64,000 bases of DNA from an uncultured Candidatus Saccharibacteria bacterium (lineage in GTDB: Bacteria; Patescibacteriota; Saccharimonadia; Saccharimonadales; JAGQNJ01), in contig CAZNZL010000001.1 in the NCBI GenBank assembly GCA_964577565.1, forward strand, positions 78,566-142,565, read 5' to 3'. Each line of letters opens with the position of its first letter. The stretch's first letter is position 1. Of the stretch, positions 1-45,294 are shown piece after piece. Position numbers and translations under genes: made by a program. Below the pieces are notes generated by a model. The model made no database searches, was not told where the DNA came from, and saw only the letters and a program-made list of their open reading frames with translations.

Positions 1-2232
1 ACGTTTCCGAGCTTTGAGGTTGACCCGCTGGCGGCTATTACTGCCTCATTAGCCAAGCTCGAAGAAAATGAGCGGGCGGTGATTCAGTTTTTGGTACGCC
101 CAGCCTTTAATAGTTGGTATAGCAAGGCGCAAAAGTATGCTGCCAGCATTCAAAATGGCACCAGTTTTGGCGGTCTGGCAAAAGCCTTAATGAGCGGTAC
201 TGATAACACCACCGCTCGACAATTGAGCCCTGTAGAACAAGCGCGCATTAAAGCTGCAGAAGAAAAGAGCCAAAAATTAGCCTACGAGACCAAAATTCGC
301 GTTATTTATGAGGGTAATGTAAGTTCGGTAGAGGCGAATATGCGCCTGCAAGCCATCATTGCCAGCTTCAAACAGTTTAACTCAACTAATCTTAACGGCT
401 TCACGGCCAAGCGCAACCATACGTTTAACCCCGGTGACGCTTCAATTATAAACCGAGTTTTTAGCGGTACTGGTTTTGTGTGCAACATTGAAGAAGTTGC
501 TAGTTTGTATCACCTGCCCCACACCAACGTAGAAACGCCATTTATTCAGTGGGCTACGGCCCGAACCGCCGAACCACCGGCCAATTTGCCGATAGTTTCT
601 GCTAGTGGCTATGATCCGTCGAGCGTCAGCCCGATTGGTGTCACTAACTTTCGTGGCGGCAATACGGCGTTTGGCTTGCCCAGGACCGATCGAGGTCGGC
701 ACCTCTATATTATTGGTCAAACCGGCGTAGGTAAATCGGGTTTACTTGAGCTGTTGACTATATCCGATATTCATAGTCCGTTTGGCTTTGCGGTAATTGA
801 CCCGCACGGCGATTACGCTATTAATATTTTGCGGCGTATTCCGGCTTCACGCGCTAAAGACGTAGTTTATTTTAACCCGGCCGACACAGACTATCCGATT
901 GCCTTTAACCCAATGGAGGTTTATGACGACAAGCTTAAAACTCATACTACTTCAGAGCTTATCGGTGTCTTAAAGCGCATGTTTGAATCTTGGGGCCCGC
1001 GCCTCGAGTACATTTTGCGCTATACCTTGCTTGCCCTGCTTGATTATCCAGAGTCAACCATGCTTGATATTACGCGCATGTTAACCGACAAAAAGTTCCG
1101 TAGCGAGGTGCTTTCGTATGTCAACGACCCGGTCGTAAAAAACTTTTGGTTGGTGGAGTTTGCCAGCTGGAACGACAAATTTGCCGCCGAAGCCGTTGCA
1201 CCAGTGCTCAACAAAGTCGGTGCCTTTACGGCTAACCCAACCGTTCGTAATATTATTGGCCAGCCAAAAAGCAGCTTTAATATCCGACACATTATGGATG
1301 AAAAGAAAATTCTTATTGTTAATCTATCTCGCGGTTTGATTGGTGAGGACAACGCTGCCCTGCTTGGTGCGTTGTTGGTTACCAAAATTCAGATGGCGGC
1401 CATGTCGCGGGCCGATATTGACGCTAGCGAACGCACACCGTTTTATCTGTACGTTGACGAGTTTCAAAACTTTGCCACCGACTCGTTTGCAACCATCTTG
1501 AGTGAGGCACGTAAGTACGGTCTATGCTTAACCGTTGCCAACCAATACATTGCTCAGATGAGCCAAGAGGTACGCGATGCGGTGTTTGGTAACGTTGGCT
1601 CGACTGTTGCCTTTCGAATGGGTGCGGATGACGCTCGCGTGATGCAGCGCTACTTTGAGCCTAAGTTTGAAGAGCATGACCTGGTGCACATGCACAACCG
1701 CAACTTCGTTATTAGCCTTACTATTGGCGGCGAGAAAGTCCAGGCTTTTTCGGGTACCTCACTTAACTTGCCAGCTCGAACCGAGACTGACCAAATGAGT
1801 GCCATTATTGCTCATTCACGTGAACAATACGCGCGCCAATTGCAGCATATCGAGTCATTCGTACAAGAGCGCTACGTCACGCCGTCGGTGCAAGCGACCC
1901 AACCTAAACCACCAAAACCCACACCTAAACCTACACCCGTTGAGCCGCCCAAAGCCACACCACCCGCTAAACCTGCAGATGCTACCCCTGCGCCATCTGC
2001 GCTAGGGGCAGTTATTGTGCCCGAGCCAGAAGTTCTAGATGAAACAAAGCCCAAGCGTAAACGCCGTCGGCGCCGCAAAAAGAAGAACAGTGATAGTAGC
2101 CAGCCTGTCACGCAGTCCTCTACAACTACCGCTATTGAAGAGCGCCCTGAGCACGAGCTTGCCAAGCCAGAAGACGTTGCGCCGCCTAGTGATGGCCATT
2201 TGGGCGACGAAGACACCATCCACCTCCGGTAG
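1..2232 (+). CDS. Type IV secretion coupling-protein-like ATPase (TraD/VirD4/TraG type), 5' end outside window
   Basis: The frame is open from nt 1, with no stop upstream of the track start at 79. Walker A GQTGVGKSG; Walker-B-like FYLYVDEFQNF; C-terminal Pro/Lys/Arg-rich tail (PKPPKPTPKPTP...KRKRRRRRKKK). Confidence 0.75.
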   Translation, partial: TFPSFEVDPLAAITASLAKLEENERAVIQFLVRPAFNSWYSKAQKYAASIQNGTSFGGLAKALMSGTDNTTARQLSPVEQARIKAAEEKSQKLAYETKIRVIYEGNVSSVEANMRLQAIIASFKQFNSTNLNGFTAKRNHTFNPGDASIINRVFSGTGFVCNIEEVASLYHLPHTNVETPFIQWATARTAEPPANLPIVSASGYDPSSVSPIGVTNFRGGNTAFGLPRTDRGRHLYIIGQTGVGKSGLLELLTISDIHSPFGFAVIDPHGDYAINILRRIPASRAKDVVYFNPADTDYPIAFNPMEVYDDKLKTHTTSELIGVLKRMFESWGPRLEYILRYTLLALLDYPESTMLDITRMLTDKKFRSEVLSYVNDPVVKNFWLVEFASWNDKFAAEAVAPVLNKVGAFTANPTVRNIIGQPKSSFNIRHIMDEKKILIVNLSRGLIGEDNAALLGALLVTKIQMAAMSRADIDASERTPFYLYVDEFQNFATDSFATILSEARKYGLCLTVANQYIAQMSQEVRDAVFGNVGSTVAFRMGADDARVMQRYFEPKFEEHDLVHMHNRNFVISLTIGGEKVQAFSGTSLNLPARTETDQMSAIIAHSREQYARQLQHIESFVQERYVTPSVQATQPKPPKPTPKPTPVEPPKATPPAKPADATPAPSALGAVIVPEPEVLDETKPKRKRRRRRKKKNSDSSQPVTQSSTTTAIEERPEHELAKPEDVAPPSDGHLGDEDTIHLR

Positions 2233-2235
2233 CTA

Positions 2236-2265
2236 TTGACAAAACTGCACAAAGTATGCTATAAT
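2236..2265 (+). promoter_or_regulatory. Near-consensus sigma70-type promoter with extended -10
   Basis: TTGACA at 2236-2241, an 18-nt spacer, then TGcTATAAT (TATAAT at 2260-2265). It lies directly after the stop of the upstream gene and faces the 2445 ORF. Confidence 0.5.
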
Positions 2266-2328
2266 AGTAAGATAGGGTGTTGAGTATCTATATCTATTCC
2301 ACCCCTGTTATTTGACAAGCAGGCTTTT

Positions 2329-2379
2329 ACCAACGGAGCTACGGTTATATATAAAATGTATAACTATAACTCCGTTGGT
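2329..2379 (+). promoter_or_regulatory. Leader hairpin in the predicted 5' UTR
   Basis: ACCAACGGAG (2329-2338) pairs perfectly with CTCCGTTGGT (2370-2379). An inner AT-rich stem pairs GTTATA with TATAAC. Confidence 0.35.
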
Positions 2380-2444
2380 GAGATACAGAATACTCACGTC
2401 TTGCAGTGCAGGATGCCACTCTGGCAATGGAGAGGAAGGTAAGC

Positions 2445-2858
2445 ATGTCGGATTGTACATTCAGCAACCATGGCCGGACTGTTCAGTTCAGGGATGTCGA
2501 GATCACAATCAATCGTGACCTCGATCGGGAACGCCTGTGGATGTTGGCAGTCCTCTTCAACCCGCTAAGTCCGTCGTGGTCAACCATGGCTGGCGGTTTT
2601 CTACTGCCACTTCCCGAGGAGCGCACCAATGCGCGTGTCGAGGTCATGGTCGTTCGTAACGAGTACGCGGAGCCGCTGACCATCAGCATCCAGCTGCTCA
2701 ACGCAGCAGTGGATCTCAAGCAGTATGTCATGGCGGTCGACTTCCTCGCAAGGCTGATCTCTATGGGGGGTCTGAGCCACGAGCTCTCGCCCTTCGTCAA
2801 TGATCAGCCCATCGAGAGCGACCAGACGACGTACTCGCACGTGACGGTCCATCCGTGA
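2445..2858 (+). CDS. Hypothetical protein (orphan, GC-rich relative to neighbours)
   Basis: The in-frame ATG at 2445 is preceded by GGAGAGGAAGG. The ORF is 137 aa and I recognise no motif in it. Long shadow ORFs on the opposite strand (2483-2800, 2601-2852) are consistent with locally elevated GC. Confidence 0.5.
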   Translation: MSDCTFSNHGRTVQFRDVEITINRDLDRERLWMLAVLFNPLSPSWSTMAGGFLLPLPEERTNARVEVMVVRNEYAEPLTISIQLLNAAVDLKQYVMAVDFLARLISMGGLSHELSPFVNDQPIESDQTTYSHVTVHP

Positions 2859-2960
2859 TCCCCCGGGGGTAATGAGCAGACGTGAGAGTATGTAATTAAA
2901 TGAGTTGTGAGTAGTTACTAACTACGCCCTCTTTATTACTTATTCTGACGCCTGCTTGTT

Positions 2961-3015
2961 ATTCCCTCCATGAATGTGCGTTCATGCTGATGAGTCCAAA
3001 AGGACGAAAGCGAAG
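2961..3015 (+). ncRNA. Candidate type III hammerhead ribozyme
   Basis: CUGAUGA at 2987-2993. Stem II is G-UCC/AAAA/GGA-C (2994-3005). GAAA at 3006-3009. Stem I is the closed hairpin CATGAA-TGTGCG-TTCATG (2969-2986). Open stem III pairs 3009-3014 with 2962-2967 (5 of 6 pairs). Predicted cleavage is after the CUC triplet, at 2968/2969. Confidence 0.6.
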
Positions 3016-3054
3016 ACCCCCAATAATGTTCTTTCCAAAAGAACCAAACCCTCT

Positions 3055-3506
3055 CACACCTTTTGTATGGCCAAAAGGTGTAACCAAAAGGCCACTGGCG
3101 ACTGAAAAACAATGATGTTCATTCACGTGTCTGGTATCCGGATTCTACGTAACGACCCTTCGGGGTCGCCCGGCTTATTGCCGGGTGAGCCTCGAATCAC
3201 GGTATACCAGACTACGCTCATTCTCTTCAGTTTTTCAGAGCCAGAATCCTAGGCTCTGAACACACCCGAATAAGCCAGTCAAAGCTACAACTTCTAGGCC
3301 GAGGATGTTTGAGCCGGCAGCTGCCGGGGAGTTCCGCAAGGCTGTTGTAGTTCTTTGACATATGGCTTATGTCGAGTGGTGTTCAGTCGCCTAGTGGGGT
3401 TTTTGCCTTCTTTTTGACCTACAGCAAAAAGAAGGGCGCTTGAAGGTAACGAAGTTACCGAAGCGAAACTATTTAAACTTTGGTTACACTTTGGTCAATA
3501 CAAAAG
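3055..3506 (+). ncRNA. Large multi-branched structured element (candidate ncRNA; a MITE-like palindromic element is not excluded)
   Basis: Nested complementary segments: 3061-3085/3482-3505, 3092-3106/3382-3397, 3129-3140/3200-3212, 3141-3145/3194-3198 and 3262-3291/3344-3382. Local hairpins: 3154-3167 (UUCG loop), 3169-3185, 3235-3259, 3405-3415/3426-3437 and 3438-3464. Strand is uncertain; + is favoured by the upstream hammerhead and one G-T pair. Confidence 0.4.
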
Positions 3507-3516
3507 TTTCAAAGAC

Positions 3517-4974
3517 TTAAAGATTCTGCAGCTGTTGTTGGAGACGCCGAAGACTAACCTCTTTGCCCAAGACCGCGAGGGTCTCTGCTAAGCCCGGGCT
3601 GGCAGGTGCTTGTGTGACTGCAATGCGAATTAGGCTAAACAGTACAGCTGGCTTTTGGTCGGTGTCTTCAAGCAATTGGTTTAATCGTTCTGTGAGGTCT
3701 TCAACCGAAAAATCACTTTGCTCAATTGAGTTTATGGTAACCTCTAACAGGTTTTTAAGCTCTTGAGCCGACATTTTCTTGAGTTGCTTGTGAGAGGAAA
3801 TAAGCGCATTATCGAGCGGCAAATCTTTAAAGAAAAATATCGTTAATTCTGACAGCTCAGCAAAGTATTTTAAGCGTTCTTGCACAAGGCCCAACACCTG
3901 TTTTTTATATGCATCATCATAATCAGCAGCTTCTTTTGGCCAAAAGCCATCAACCCGGGCGTATAAGTCATCAAGCGATAGCTGTCGGATAAAGTGCCCG
4001 TTAGTCCAGGCCAGGCGGCGCTCATCAAAGTGCGCCCCACTTTTGCCAACACGGCTGAGGCTAAATTTTTGAATGAGCTCATCGGTAGTAAAAATCTCTT
4101 GCTCGGTGCCGTCATTCCAGCCGAGGGTCGCAATAAAGCTCCGCAGCGCTTCCGGCAAATAACCCCGTTTTATGTAATCAAGAATATCTTTGGCGCCATC
4201 GCGCTTAGAAAGTTTTTTGTTGCCTTGTTCATTTAGAATATGCGGCATCGTAGCAAAAATCGGTGGTTTTATGCCGAGGGCTTCGTACAAGTTGAGGTAA
4301 TTTGGTATGCTGGCAATAAACTCCTGGCCGCGAATAACGTGCGTAATCTGCATCTCTGCATCATCAACAATGTGCGCAAAATTATAGGTTGGGTAGCTAT
4401 CTGACTTAATAAGAATAAAATCGTCAATTACCTCCGGGCCGGTTGATAAATCACCCATGACCTCGTCATGCCATTGATAACTTTTAGGGTCGGATTTAAA
4501 ACGCAAGGGTTGGGTGCCATCCCAGGCTGGTGGGTTCTCTGGCCGGTGGTTGCGGTATAAAAATGGTTTTTTGCTTGCTTTAGCTTGTTCACGGAAGACC
4601 TGAACTTCTTCAGGGCTGTATGGGTCTGCATAGGCTCTACCCTGCTCAATTAATTTATTGGCCCATTGTTTGTAAATTTCAAGCCGCTCGCTTTGGCGAT
4701 ATGGCCCGAAGTCACCCGCTTTGTCTGGACCCTCGTCGTACTCCAAGCCAAGCGCATCAAGGCTTTGAATTAAATGTTCGGCTGAGCCTTCGACTTCCCG
4801 TTTCTTATCGGTGTCTTCAAGTCGTAATATAAATTGTCCGTTATGCTGGCGCGCTACCAACCAGGCAAATAAGGCGGTGCGGATGCCGCCAACGTGTAAA
4901 AAGCCCGTTGGGCTTGGCGCAAATCTAGTTCGCACCCTGTTCACTTGAGACTCCGTTATTAGAATGTGTCGCAC
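3517..4974 (-). CDS. gltX: Glutamate--tRNA ligase
   Basis: RFAPSPTGFLHVGG (HIGH-type motif) and KLSKR (KMSKS-type motif). Full length is typical of bacterial GluRS. The true start may be slightly downstream of 4974. Confidence 0.95.
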   Translation of the reverse strand: MRHILITESQVNRVRTRFAPSPTGFLHVGGIRTALFAWLVARQHNGQFILRLEDTDKKREVEGSAEHLIQSLDALGLEYDEGPDKAGDFGPYRQSERLEIYKQWANKLIEQGRAYADPYSPEEVQVFREQAKASKKPFLYRNHRPENPPAWDGTQPLRFKSDPKSYQWHDEVMGDLSTGPEVIDDFILIKSDSYPTYNFAHIVDDAEMQITHVIRGQEFIASIPNYLNLYEALGIKPPIFATMPHILNEQGNKKLSKRDGAKDILDYIKRGYLPEALRSFIATLGWNDGTEQEIFTTDELIQKFSLSRVGKSGAHFDERRLAWTNGHFIRQLSLDDLYARVDGFWPKEAADYDDAYKKQVLGLVQERLKYFAELSELTIFFFKDLPLDNALISSHKQLKKMSAQELKNLLEVTINSIEQSDFSVEDLTERLNQLLEDTDQKPAVLFSLIRIAVTQAPASPGLAETLAVLGKEVSLRRLQQQLQNL

Positions 4975-43262: not shown

Positions 43263-44735
43263 ATGAAAACTAAGGCATTTTTAATAGCAAGGGTATCAGA
43301 CCCTGAACAACGGCAGGCACTACCTGCACAGGTTTTACGGCTTGAAAAATACGCAAAAGATAAAGGCTACGACTACGAACTATTTGAGTTTGATGAAAGT
43401 GCATATAAAGATAACCGCAAAACTTTCAGCAAGATTGTTGAAAGCATACGCAACTACCCTGAAAACTGCATTGTGGTCTTTGATAAGATTGACCGCTATA
43501 CAAGGGATAGTTCGGCTGATGAGGTTAAGACACTGAACAAGCTGCGTGAGGACGGCAAGATTGAAATACACTTTCCGTCTGATAACTTGGCTGTTCATAA
43601 AAACTCGCCAGCACCTGACTTGTTCCGTCTAGGTATTGGCGTTGCACTTGCTCGCTACTACTCTGACAGCATTAGAGATAATGTTAAACGCCGCTTTGAG
43701 CAAAAGCTGAACGATGGCGAGTGGCCTGGTAAAGCACCGATTGGCTATGTAAATCACAGGATTAGCGACAAAGAAACAACGGTGCTACTTGATCAAGAGC
43801 GAGCTGGCTATATCAAAAAGGCATTTGAGCTGAGACTAATCGGTACACCATATAGAGGCATTGCCGCCCAACTCAAAAAAGAGGGTTTGCGAAACAATAC
43901 AGCCAAGCGTACACCAATTGGGCAAGGCTATATTGAGCAGATACTAAAAAATCCGTTCTACTATGGCGTTATGCGGTACAACGGCAAGCTGTACCCTCAC
44001 AAGTACGAGCCACTTATCAGCCGCAAGATGTTTGATAAGGTCCAAGCCGTAAATGAACAGCGAGGCACTAATCGCACCAAGAAACAAGCAATTGACTACA
44101 CCTTTAACGGCTTACTGAAATGTGGCAGTTGCGGTTGCAGTATTTCGTCTTATACAGCCAAAGGTAACGTCTATATGCAATGCAGCAAAGGCAAAGGTCC
44201 GTGCAAACAGCCACACATCAAAGAAAAGGACCTTGTGCCGCAGGTTGCTGCTATGGTTGGTCAGCTTGAAATGAACGAGGATATTGTTAACTACGTTATT
44301 GATGAACTACGCAAGCACCACGATAACCAACAGCTGTATTATGCAAATGCCATTGAGCAGACACGCACCGAGTACGACACAATACAGAAAAAGCTGCGTG
44401 TTTTGTATGACGATAGGCTCGATGGGCGTATTACTCTCACTGACTATGACGAATATGTAAAGGACCTAAAAGCTCGACAAGAGCAATTAGACGAACAGCT
44501 AGTTAGCTTGACGCATAACGATAAGAGTTTTATGCTAACCAGTTCGTATCTGTTAGAGATAGCTACAAAAGCCCCTCAATTGTTTCAAAGTTCGAAAGCG
44601 GCTCTAAAATCTAAGTTATTAAGGTTTTTACTTTCGAACTTGGTAATTCACGATAAAAAGCTCGTTTTCAATCTAAAAGCACCCTTTGATGTAATCGCCG
44701 AGTGCTCTCAAACTCAATCTTGGCTCCGGGGATAG
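43263..44735 (+). CDS. Large serine recombinase (integrase)
   Basis: N-terminal resolvase-type catalytic region (FLIARVSDPEQ), a recombinase domain, a Cys-rich zinc ribbon (CGSCGCSISSY...CSKGKGPCKQPH), and a coiled-coil tail. The last 5 codons and the TAG stop lie inside the tRNA-Asn 3' end. Confidence 0.9.
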   Translation: MKTKAFLIARVSDPEQRQALPAQVLRLEKYAKDKGYDYELFEFDESAYKDNRKTFSKIVESIRNYPENCIVVFDKIDRYTRDSSADEVKTLNKLREDGKIEIHFPSDNLAVHKNSPAPDLFRLGIGVALARYYSDSIRDNVKRRFEQKLNDGEWPGKAPIGYVNHRISDKETTVLLDQERAGYIKKAFELRLIGTPYRGIAAQLKKEGLRNNTAKRTPIGQGYIEQILKNPFYYGVMRYNGKLYPHKYEPLISRKMFDKVQAVNEQRGTNRTKKQAIDYTFNGLLKCGSCGCSISSYTAKGNVYMQCSKGKGPCKQPHIKEKDLVPQVAAMVGQLEMNEDIVNYVIDELRKHHDNQQLYYANAIEQTRTEYDTIQKKLRVLYDDRLDGRITLTDYDEYVKDLKARQEQLDEQLVSLTHNDKSFMLTSSYLLEIATKAPQLFQSSKAALKSKLLRFLLSNLVIHDKKLVFNLKAPFDVIAECSQTQSWLRG

Positions 44736-44738: not shown

Positions 44739-45052
44739 TCGAACCTACGACCTAGTGGTTACACATTACCCATTATTTTCATAATGGCATGGACTATCTC
44801 ATCATCCGGCTATTGCCGGATGCTGGGCGCTAGTGAAGGATTATTGTTGGGCTCACCTTCTAGTCTCTGAACCTTCCGAAGGGCATGACCCCACCTTCGG
44901 CTTGGCTGCGGATTACCATGTCCGCCTTCTGGCGGATTTAGGCTTCCCGCAATTCACCCAGTTTTCACTGTTTTGTTGCCAAAACAGGCTGCACTTTATT
45001 GAGTAACTCAATGTGACTACAGCCACCCGCTCTACCGCTGAGCTACCCCGGA
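44721..45052 (-). tRNA. tRNA-Asn(GUU) interrupted by a group I intron
   Basis: Exon 1 (45052-45019) is TCCGGGGTAGCTCAGCGGTAGAGCGGGTGGCTGT. Exon 2 (44761-44721) is TAACCACTAGGTCGTAGGTTCGAATCCTATCCCCGGAGCCA. Joined, they give the loop CU-GUU-AA, a 5-nt variable loop and discriminator G. The UCC...GGA-G-CCA ends match my recollection of E. coli tRNA-Asn. Confidence 0.8.
44762..45018 (-). ncRNA. Group I intron (IC3-like), 257 nt, in the anticodon loop
   Basis: The 5' exon ends in U, and the P1 guide GCAGCC (44987-44992, reverse complement) pairs with GGCUGU with a terminal U-G. The intron ends in G. Core blocks AGCCAAGCCGAAGG, GGAAGGUUCAGAGACUAGAAGG and AGAUAGUCC resemble the tRNA-Leu and Azoarcus-type introns. 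Confidence 0.75.
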
Positions 45053-45294
45053 ATAAATTGTGATATGTACTCTCGACCCTTGTGCGACTTGAGTTGTTTT
45101 TCTCTCTCGATCGCTTCAGAGCGAGTGGCAAATGATTCTTTATAAATCATCTCCCATCTACCCTGAAATCGTGCAGTATAACTTTTTGATTTATGTTTAT
45201 TATTGTGCGCAATAAGTCGCGCGTCAATATTCTGGGTCTGGCCAATGTATACTTTCTTTACCGTGGGGTTGTATATTACATATACAAAAAACAT
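45043..45294 (-). CDS. GIY-YIG nuclease family small protein
   Basis: FVYVIYN...KVYIGQTQNIDARLIAHN...AIEREKQLK. The stop codon overlaps the first 10 nt of tRNA-Asn. Confidence 0.8.
   Translation of the reverse strand: MFFVYVIYNPTVKKVYIGQTQNIDARLIAHNNKHKSKSYTARFQGRWEMIYKESFATRSEAIEREKQLKSHKGREYISQFIPG

Follow-up and report, generated by a model that had tools for sequence, protein, structure and literature searches.

What kind of unit separates the convergent genes for a type IV secretion system (T4SS) coupling protein (T4CP) and for gltX in an uncultured Candidatus Saccharibacteria bacterium is the question that we address here. The region under study comprises 1.28 kb (positions 2233-3516) of a 64,000-nucleotide stretch of DNA, hereafter called the window (GenBank assembly GCA_964577565.1, contig CAZNZL010000001.1, positions 78,566 to 142,565 of the forward strand). 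An earlier note had described this region as a self-contained module of a promoter, a leader hairpin, a GC-rich orphan open reading frame (ORF), a hammerhead ribozyme, and a structured RNA, and had proposed that a single transcript is self-processed into an mRNA and a stable non-coding RNA (ncRNA). All five elements were found to be present in the sequence, and the unit is self-contained in that it has its own promoter, an orphan ORF of foreign composition, and a canonical type III hammerhead behind this ORF. We read positions 2233-3014 as a moron-like, autonomous cassette for expressing a foreign gene, with the mRNA 3′ end made by the ribozyme, and assign this reading a probability of roughly 0.6. 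With respect to self-processing, a primary transcript that is cut at 2968/2969 is the most likely reading, but the stable ncRNA as its second product is rather unlikely.

The ribozyme covers positions 2962-3014 of the plus strand and has the sequence UUCCCU-C|CAUGAA-UGUGCG-UUCAUG-CUGAUGA-GUCC-AAAA-GGAC-GAA-AGCGAA, in which the predicted cleavage falls between C2968 and C2969, 110 nt past the stop codon of the ORF. Stem I is formed by 2969-2974 and 2981-2986 (6 bp, 6-nt loop), stem II is the 4-bp hairpin GUCC-AAAA-GGAC at 2994-3005, and stem III, which is open, is formed by 2962-2967 and 3009-3014 with five of six pairs, C2965 being mismatched with C3011. The core consists of CUGAUGA at 2987-2993 and GAAA at 3006-3009 (GAA at 3006-3008), C2968 corresponds to H17, and the pairs adjoining the core are intact (A3009-U2967, equivalent to A15.1-U16.1; C2969-G2986; G2994-C3005). 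Every core nucleotide is canonical and the topology is that of type III, as the earlier note had recognized when it placed a canonical hammerhead core behind the ORF stop. On all sequence and structure criteria, the RNA encoded in the window is to be classed as a type III hammerhead.

The exact 23-nt core CTGATGAGTCCAAAAGGACGAAA occurs at at least 119 genome loci and in 36 IMG/VR viral contigs; by our own arithmetic, about 0.02 matches to this 23-mer would be expected by chance in 596 Gb. Among the genome loci listed, 96 of 119 were from Patescibacteria and 61 of 119 from Saccharibacteria, as judged by record title. An alignment of 145 distinct copies was in perfect register, with stem I 97% paired and covariation at six of six pairs in stem I and at five of six pairs in stem III. 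Over stems I and III of these copies, 92.7% of the cells were paired compared to 64.7% after shuffling and 34 to 43% after sliding the partners, and the covariation score was 0.731 compared to 0.169 for shuffled and at most 0.133 for slid partners. A covariance model built from the 145 copies assigned 70.1 bits to the window copy, which was part of the training set, and detected no further hammerhead copies in the 64-kb window.

Some features of the copies outside the window are noted here. Of 127 genome-locus copies, 18 have a UUCUUU motif within 30 nt 3′ of the hammerhead, mostly at a distance of 6 to 10 nt; the motif was seen in one of 127 control windows and in none of the 36 viral copies, and it often precedes a ribosome-binding site (RBS) and a start codon. 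The window has this motif at 3028-3034. In the viral contigs (L120-L155; related loci are designated by L numbers), the ribozyme usually stands directly after a local hairpin, e.g., GUGUCUUCAAAGACAC, and before an A-rich spacer and an ATG; it thus lies between cistrons there. Paceibacteria contig L038 (4662-5684) contains three hammerheads within 1 kb, which flank ORFs of 67 and 95 amino acids (aa).

The hammerhead forms the 3′ end of a recurrent arrangement. In the order sigma-70 promoter, 5′-terminal hairpin, leader site ACAAGCAG, coding sequence with a high GC content at third codon positions (GC3), 3′ untranslated region (UTR) hairpin with CUGCUUGU, and hammerhead, the complete cassette was found in the window and in L006, L040, L056, L067, L079, L113, L118 (three modules in 8 kb), and L243. 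CUGCUUGU was present upstream of the hammerhead in a subset of the family copies, and a short hairpin bulged by U(U/C) stood before ACAAGCAG, as did a perfect TTGACA / TGnTAnnnT promoter. A search for the 3′-site pattern in IMG/VR gave no match, and no copy of any part of 2233-3516 was detected elsewhere in the 64-kb window.

Cassettes located at the same locus could be compared directly. In L006, a metagenome-assembled genome (MAG) of the Saccharibacteria, the promoter and leader are 89% identical to those of the window, and the hammerhead and parts of the downstream region are present, but the coding sequence (131 aa) is unrelated to the window ORF. In L243, an assembly that was reached via its 80%-identical GltX, a third, unrelated coding sequence is enclosed by the promoter, leader, and UTRs known from the window, the hammerhead follows (71.5 bits), and no more than about 5 nt separate its end from the gltX stop codon. 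The window, L006, and L243 thus share a scaffold of promoter, UTRs, and ribozyme at the same locus and encode three mutually unrelated proteins. Between L006 and L243 the homology extends right to the start and stop codons, showing that the coding sequence alone differs. The scaffold is conserved in many Saccharibacteria, and the coding sequences within it are exchangeable. Recent gene conversion among the modules of a genome was considered and rejected, as identity between the three L118 modules amounts to only 53 to 78% in their UTRs. Several Saccharibacteria possess multiple cassettes close together, such as L118 with its three in 8 kb and L065. The L236 contig ends 270 nt past gltX and the L244 contig just past the hammerhead; breaks inside the module or at its edge are expected in short-read assemblies for a repeated scaffold, and cassettes may therefore be underrepresented in MAGs.

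The coding sequence of the window cassette (2445-2858, plus strand; 137 aa) is an orphan of foreign composition. Its GC content is 0.57 and its GC3 is 0.73, whereas the 28 long ORFs of the window have a GC3 of 0.416 ± 0.047 with a maximum of 0.51. This calculation confirmed the impression in the earlier note of an ORF more GC-rich than its surroundings, and the shadow ORFs on the minus strand are likewise present. The 137-aa ORF is the sole one in the 64 kb with such an excess in the order GC3 > GC1 > GC2 (GC content at the third, first, and second codon positions, respectively), an order that represents a coding signature. Five nucleotides before the ATG, an 11-nt purine-rich, Shine-Dalgarno-like sequence is located (GGAGAGGAAGG, 2429-2439), which by its sequence corresponds to the strong RBS proposed earlier; GGAGAAAGCAA is found at the equivalent place in relatives.

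Pfam and PHROG yielded no matches for the 137-aa ORF, no homolog was found in a word-indexed search of 5.8 billion proteins, and comparison with GenBank phages at the level of protein and distant DNA gave no match. An exhaustive HMMER search against 1.84 billion representatives returned just two weak matches to a repeat unit: residues 7-67 (within 2445-2620) weakly resemble a tandem repeat unit of about 56 aa (E = 2e-5 and 1e-8) that is carried by a 214-aa protein and by a 3436-aa protein with CARDB and dockerin domains. This resemblance hints that the N-terminal 60 or so residues might form a small beta-rich domain. Structure prediction, which the earlier note had suggested, resulted in a single-sequence AlphaFold2 model with a predicted local distance difference test (pLDDT) score of 48.8.

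The bias in composition is not confined to the window. Cassette cargo has a GC3 of 0.73 to 0.82 throughout, and for 128 genome-locus hammerheads the ORF ending just 5′ of the ribozyme exceeds the GC3 median of its locus by a median of 0.16, compared to 0.01 in the viral loci; the upstream ORFs in viral contigs L120-L155 show no GC3 enrichment. Cargo elsewhere includes a DUF2807 protein, an ion-channel domain, a zinc ribbon, a weak CPBP-like match, and many orphans. No homology among cassette proteins was found except between L243 and L113: the L243 coding sequence, which retrieved only itself in a protein database search, is 44% identical to the L113 cargo, with identities of 0.64, 0.67, and 0.49 at codon positions 1, 2, and 3. 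As the third position is the least conserved, the cassette cargos are real genes.

Upstream of the coding sequence, a sigma-70-type promoter with an extended -10 region is located at 2236-2265 on the plus strand, composed of TTGACA (2236-2241), an 18-nt spacer, TG (2257-2258), and TATAAT (2260-2265; TGcTATAAT). It scores 12/12 with the TG, in line with the near-perfect extended -10 promoter claimed before, and transcription would start near 2271-2273. In at least 8 of the 11 related modules, a perfect -35 region and a TGnTAnnnT -10 region are found 45 to 75 nt 5′ of the leader site. A second candidate promoter at TTGACAAGCAG was rejected on inspection of the sequence, as no -10 region follows.

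The transcript would begin with a hairpin predicted at 2275-2304 (plus strand; GGGUG-UU-GAGUA / UAUUC-CACCC) that contains a 2-nt UU bulge. When the modules were compared by eye, its outer helix was found to vary yet stay complementary (CUUCG/CGAAG, GGGUG/CACCC, CCGU/ACGG), and U(U/C)GAG was conserved within the hairpin. It is followed by the leader strand GACAAGCAGGC (2314-2324, plus strand), which is complementary to 2950-2960 (10/10 match in the repeat listing), and by a 5′UTR hairpin at 2327-2381 (plus strand; -28.2 kcal/mol, z = -6.6). The latter is the 51-nt leader hairpin of the earlier note; the hairpin is there, but its stem is not perfect, as the 24 bp are interrupted by two 1×1 mismatches and the arms are 83% complementary. 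Hairpins are also present at the equivalent position in L006, L243, and L118.

Between the stop codon and the ribozyme, positions 2865-2966 of the plus strand form a long 3′UTR hairpin (-44.8 kcal/mol, z = -6.8), the 3′ arm of which contains both CUGCUUGU (2952-2959) and the 5′ strand of stem III (2962-2966). The hairpin is strand specific, with -44.8 kcal/mol compared to -32.8 kcal/mol on the other strand, and includes six G-U pairs. An equivalent long hairpin was present between stop codon and ribozyme in all modules examined, and in six of six modules tested it overlapped stem III. Because the 3′ arm of the hairpin includes the 5′ strand of stem III, the ribozyme-active fold lies above the minimum free energy (MFE) fold, by 5.4 to 11.5 kcal/mol in the six modules. 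This overlap suggests that cleavage needs a transient or assisted opening of the hairpin base and that the released 3′ end refolds into a nearly blunt hairpin.

The same arm takes part in a second interaction. The leader site ACAAGCAG is complementary to CUGCUUGU, which in the modules lies 480 to 1033 nt farther downstream; in the window, the 3′ strand of this long-range helix is GCCUGCUUGUU at 2950-2960 (plus strand), which pairs with the leader at 2314-2324. With their flanks included, the two 8-mers make up a helix of 13 bp; across 11 modules 96.5% of it is paired, with compensatory changes at three pairs and several G-U pairs, and none of 500 shuffles reached the observed score. The two positions following the 8-mer core read AC, AU, GC, or AA on both sides, and in L243 the helix consists of ACAAACAG paired with CUGUUUGU. 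The list of elements in the earlier note lacks this leader-to-3′-site pairing, as well as the 3′UTR hairpin overlapping stem III and the multicopy family with exchangeable coding sequences.

These features can be combined into the following model. The consensus sigma-70 promoter would start an mRNA bearing a short hairpin at its 5′ end, which would protect the message; 5′-terminal stem-loops reportedly stabilize mRNA, as described by Emory et al. in 1992. The mRNA would consist of a structured 5′UTR, a strong RBS, and a 137-aa coding sequence presumably acquired from a GC-richer gene pool, and the ORF would be translated. Its 3′ end would result from cleavage by the type III hammerhead after C2968 rather than from a terminator. 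As the 5′ strand of stem III doubles as the base of the 3′UTR hairpin, the ribozyme would borrow these nucleotides for cutting, and after cleavage the hairpin would re-form and bury the 3′ end with its 2′,3′-cyclic phosphate in a nearly blunt structure. The 11-bp helix between 2314-2324 and 2950-2960 would compete for the 3′ arm of the hairpin and might permit cleavage by opening the hairpin or, alternatively, hold the two ends of the mRNA together. The downstream fragment with its 5′-OH end would probably be degraded, or it might act as a spacer or terminator against oncoming gltX transcription. By analogy, it is a likely substrate for an RNase J-type enzyme; Collins et al. are said to have reported in 2007 that the 5′-OH cleavage product of the glmS ribozyme is a substrate of RNase J1.

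Several points weigh against this model. The window hammerhead reached only 20.9 bits with the Rfam model RF00008, for which the gathering score is 48.5, and the alignment was misregistered with stem I misplaced. At 13 related loci, each with at least one copy of the 23-mer, a single hammerhead match reached the Rfam threshold, and this poor coverage indicates that the failed score reflects the Rfam model and not the RNA. In covariance-model tests the proposed hammerhead thus falls below the threshold of Rfam, but belongs to a 145-copy family that covaries in stems I and III. The family copies were gathered by an exact 23-nt match, and conservation of the core and of stem II is therefore given by construction. 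The 137-aa ORF is without real homologs or a confident structure, its translation being argued from composition and RBS alone. Furthermore, the 500-nt structured region is left unaccounted for by the cassette, and the model gives no account of how coding sequences are swapped within the conserved scaffold.

The remaining points concern the activity of the ribozyme. Relatives have a G-C pair where the third pair of stem III in the window is the mismatch C2965 × C3011, and by nearest-neighbor energies the gap between the active fold and the competing hairpin is 11.5 kcal/mol in the window; taken together, these could render the window hammerhead slow or inactive. It might even be a decayed relic that no longer cleaves, next to an orphan gene that is merely ended by hairpins. 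Such a relic would fit the mismatch at a site where relatives have UUCGCUC with GCGAA, the pairing of C2965 with G2866 in the 3′UTR hairpin, where it lies inside a perfect 15-bp run, and the energy gap, which is the largest of the six modules. On the other hand, 11 of 11 core nucleotides, stems I and II, the A15.1-U16.1 pair, and the core-adjacent G-C pairs are all intact, and 8 of the 145 family members also lack a standard pair at the mismatch position. Moreover, the competing hairpin is a family-wide feature and not a local accident, and the rules of Perreault et al. (PMC3088659) accept a single nonadjacent mispair. We therefore consider decay of the ribozyme unlikely.

The flanking genes allowed us to ask whether the entire block was inserted. 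The T4CP gene (79-2232, plus strand; Pfam TrwB_AAD_bind and TraG-D_C) and gltX (3517-4974, minus strand; Pfam tRNA-synt_1c) converge as previously stated, according to the ORF list and Pfam. Relatives of the junction were collected by a metagenome scan with the C terminus of T4CP. In many of these the two genes converge directly without an insert: the stop codons overlap by 4 to 14 nt in L202, L215, and L221, and the intergenic gap amounts to 120 to 215 nt in L169, L177, and L156. The existence of insert-free relatives with overlapping or nearby stop codons shows that the whole 2233-3516 block is an insertion. No target-site duplications were seen at its borders.

The point where T4CP and gltX converge is a hot spot for insertions in Saccharibacteria: L201 and L225 carry WhiB-like ORFs there, and in L170 another, different unit of promoter, GC-rich 382-aa ORF, and hammerhead is inserted. 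In L156 and L177, a conserved ORF of about 52 aa with the motif LEWL..EAKTDYLEYRL is located downstream of the T4CP gene and seems to run into the 3′ end of gltX; a remnant of this ORF was sought in the window and not found. GltX comprises 531 to 532 aa in L006 (4356-5954), L236 (5001-6596), and L237 (5001-6599) compared to 485 aa in the window, due to an internal insertion of about 47 aa. At a distance from the junction, the window contains a candidate group I intron (44770-45011, minus strand) with a strong Rfam match of 91.9 bits, for which no tRNA or rRNA host was detected nearby. It adjoins an 83-aa GIY-YIG-like ORF (45043-45294, minus strand) and a 490-aa large serine recombinase ORF (43263-44735, plus strand).

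An insertion with exchangeable contents could also be a mobile cassette that acts at the DNA level. In this case TGACAAGCAG...CTGCTTGTCA or an attC-like palindrome at the 3′ end would be recombination sites, pairing of the RNA would be incidental, and the variable segment would move by site-specific recombination or transposition in the manner of an integron or of a miniature inverted-repeat transposable element. A perfect inverted repeat does flank the variable part, each coding sequence has an imperfect palindrome at its 3′ end, genomes contain several copies, the junction is a hot spot, and contigs break at the module. However, the homology between L006 and L243 reaches the start and stop codons, and the inverted repeat is therefore not the boundary of exchange. 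Both helices contain G-U pairs and the 3′UTR hairpin is much weaker on the other strand. No integrase, transposase, or reverse transcriptase adjoins the module, the nearest recombinase ORF being 40 kb away, and neither a target-site duplication nor a GTTRRRY core is visible. Integron gene cassettes likewise comprise small coding sequences that can be exchanged and are often orphans; an imperfect palindrome follows each of them, a strong promoter precedes them, and some genomes contain arrays. Unlike them, the units described here have no IntI ORF in the flanks and no attI or attC core, the 3′ site GTTATTC not fitting GTTRRRY; each has its own promoter and homology up to the borders of the coding sequence, and the palindrome is a G-U-rich, strand-specific RNA hairpin. 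A mobile element of this kind appears quite improbable to us, and we retain the expression cassette as the preferred reading.

The block extends beyond the ribozyme. Positions 3056-3506 form a nested, almost purely Watson-Crick structured region, which is common to the window and L006/L236 only. The earlier claim of nested long-range complementarity ending about 10 nt from the gltX stop was confirmed by folding: region 3010-3516 has an MFE of -206.4 kcal/mol (z = -9.7; z = -15 for 2859-3516), and its long-range helices stop about 10 nt short of the gltX stop (3517). In the window the minus strand folds equally well (-205.7 kcal/mol), and only 6 of 166 pairs are G-U. In L006 (z = -6.6) the plus strand is favored, with -168.9 compared to -151.0 kcal/mol and 20 G-U pairs. 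The blocks conserved with L006 are 3010-3105, 3395-3470, and 3485-3510, the interior being not alignable. They include a small hairpin just 3′ of the ribozyme (GUUCUUU-CCA-AAAGAAC, 3028-3044, plus strand) and the segment 3424-3465, which on the minus strand contains a hairpin (3465-3437) followed by CCCUUCUUUUU. This could be an intrinsic terminator of gltX, a reading of the sequence that was not called by the terminator scan.

Such a strong structure 3′ of the cleavage site might represent a functional ncRNA of about 500 nt (2969-3516), released by the cut that also forms the mRNA. The folding far beyond shuffled controls speaks for this, as do the 5′ end that the ribozyme would define and the better folding of the plus strand in L006. 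A consensus fold of the two sequences retains 94 pairs, 29 of which are changed on both sides despite the divergence, and L006 keeps a 13-bp helix with five consecutive compensatory pairs; this covariation test is circular, since it compares two sequences within a structure derived from them. Against a functional ncRNA, blastn and nhmmer searches of 244 loci with 3010-3516 found homologs only in L006 and the near-identical L236, its patterns had no match in the IMG/VR viral contigs, and in the window both strands fold equally almost without G-U pairs. Furthermore, the region is absent from L243, which has the same cassette at the orthologous locus, and from all other modules, in which a convergent gene, a terminator, or a new promoter directly follows the ribozyme, and its 3′ part may simply be the gltX terminator. 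We therefore regard a stable ncRNA product as rather unlikely. Contrary to the earlier proposal, the 450-nt structured RNA is no integral partner of ORF and ribozyme. We conclude that it is a lineage-specific addition that does not define the module; it might serve as a spacer or insulator where the two transcription units converge, or act as a non-coding RNA. In our comparisons the ribozyme family and the cassette architecture are consistently supported, whereas the ncRNA half of the original claim is its weakest part.

The earlier note had also excluded retrons, TnpB omega-RNA, transfer-messenger RNA (tmRNA), and RNase P, and this exclusion stands: no such ORFs are present, Rfam gave no match up to E = 10 for the structured region, and a tRNA/tmRNA scan with ARAGORN detected none there. 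Its loose analogy to viroid-like or Obelisk-type agents did not withstand closer comparison. The type III hammerhead, the small orphan ORF, the size of about 1.2 kb, and the extensive self-pairing would fit a circular RNA agent (viroid-like, Obelisk-like, or retrozyme-like) that was copied into DNA. Obelisks replicate as circular RNAs, adopt a rod fold over the whole genome, and encode Oblin proteins; they share with the cassette a size of about 1 kb, a small novel ORF, and, in some members, a type III hammerhead (Zheludev et al., bioRxiv 10.1101/2024.01.20.576352). The cassette differs from them in being a chromosomal locus, orthologous in three lineages and driven by its own sigma-70 promoter, and in its single cleavage site, with which excision of a unit-length RNA is impossible. 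It also folds in local domains rather than as a rod, the coding region not being paired with the 3′ region, no reverse transcriptase is present, and the scaffold carries unrelated coding sequences. An origin from such an agent is hence very improbable.

The arrangement, which the earlier note could not match to a named system, has described counterparts. Hammerheads of bacteria and phages are known to flank single small, nonconserved ORFs, and for other bacterial hammerheads self-cleavage was shown in vitro and in vivo (PMC3088659, PMC6155905). As in the examples of Perreault et al. 2011 (PMC3088659) and de la Pena et al. 2017 (PMC6155905), the window harbors an intergenic canonical hammerhead beside a small orphan gene of varying identity, related genomes contain several copies, and the presumed role is the cutting of transcripts to single-gene length. 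In contrast to the published prophage hammerheads, the window copy is flanked by T4CP and gltX and lies in no recognizable prophage, as no PHROG or GenBank phage match was obtained. Further differences from the published bacterial hammerheads are the consensus promoter of each unit, the single 3′ ribozyme instead of a flanking pair, the conserved scaffold of 5′ and 3′UTRs with its leader-to-3′-site pairing and a hairpin sharing nucleotides with stem III, the systematically GC3-rich cargo, and the concentration of the family in Patescibacteria. Full-text literature searches found no paper linking hammerhead ribozymes with Saccharibacteria, and the few that combine "hammerhead" with Patescibacteria or "candidate phyla radiation" had titles on unrelated topics.

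Two further comparisons bear on how the cassette might work. Phage morons, as reportedly described by Hendrix et al. in 2000, are autonomous promoter-ORF-terminator units of deviant composition inserted between genes. The cassette resembles them in its tight insertion between two genes, its own strong promoter, and its single small ORF of deviant composition, but it is located at a chromosomal junction instead of in a prophage, belongs to a family with a conserved RNA scaffold, and has a ribozyme in place of the terminator; a terminator scan called no intrinsic terminator in it. By analogy, it would work like a phage moron in which a ribozyme replaces the terminator. Ribozyme-defined mRNA ends are known from the glmS ribozyme with subsequent RNase J1 decay, from the 3′UTR hammerhead of rodent Clec2, and from synthetic RiboJ and 3′-ribozyme insulators. 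Common to these and to the model are cis-cleavage that sets an mRNA end, a 5′-OH product as decay substrate, and hairpins at the cut that protect the retained fragment. Unlike the cassette, glmS is a metabolite-dependent 5′UTR element, the Clec2 hammerhead is eukaryotic and discontinuous, and RiboJ is engineered, whereas the cassette would be a natural bacterial 3′UTR hammerhead coupled to a competing hairpin and a leader helix.

A more far-reaching version of this model would regard the scaffold as a dedicated platform on which Saccharibacteria and other Patescibacteria install and express coding sequences of GC-richer donors, a ribozyme-based functional counterpart of an integron expression site in which the hammerhead is a gated switch. 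In this version the leader ACAAGCAG, depending on whether it is free or occupied by translation or a bound factor, may displace the G-U-rich arm of the hairpin and free stem III, so that events at the 5′ end may control formation of the mRNA 3′ end and mRNA stability. We consider this extension speculative and, as a whole, unlikely. An even bolder version, in which the GC3-rich messages are tuned for a high-GC actinobacterial host, is neither supported nor excluded by the evidence.

The function of bacterial hammerheads is an acknowledged open question (PMC6155905). For this question the locus is an unusually clean case, as a single 3′ ribozyme belongs to a one-gene, promoter-driven unit inserted in an otherwise empty junction. 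It also provides natural experiments at one locus, with three unrelated coding sequences in one scaffold and with and without the structured region. The nucleotides shared by stem III and the hairpin and the covarying 5′-3′ helix suggest an RNA design for regulated or irreversible cleavage. The genomes of Patescibacteria are tiny and their lifestyle is epibiotic, and some Saccharibacteria can by now be cultured and manipulated genetically. If our reading is correct, it would connect the expression of orphan genes gained by horizontal transfer with self-cleaving ribozymes, and it would offer a mechanism, open to testing, by which ribozymes make mRNA 3′ ends in bacteria.

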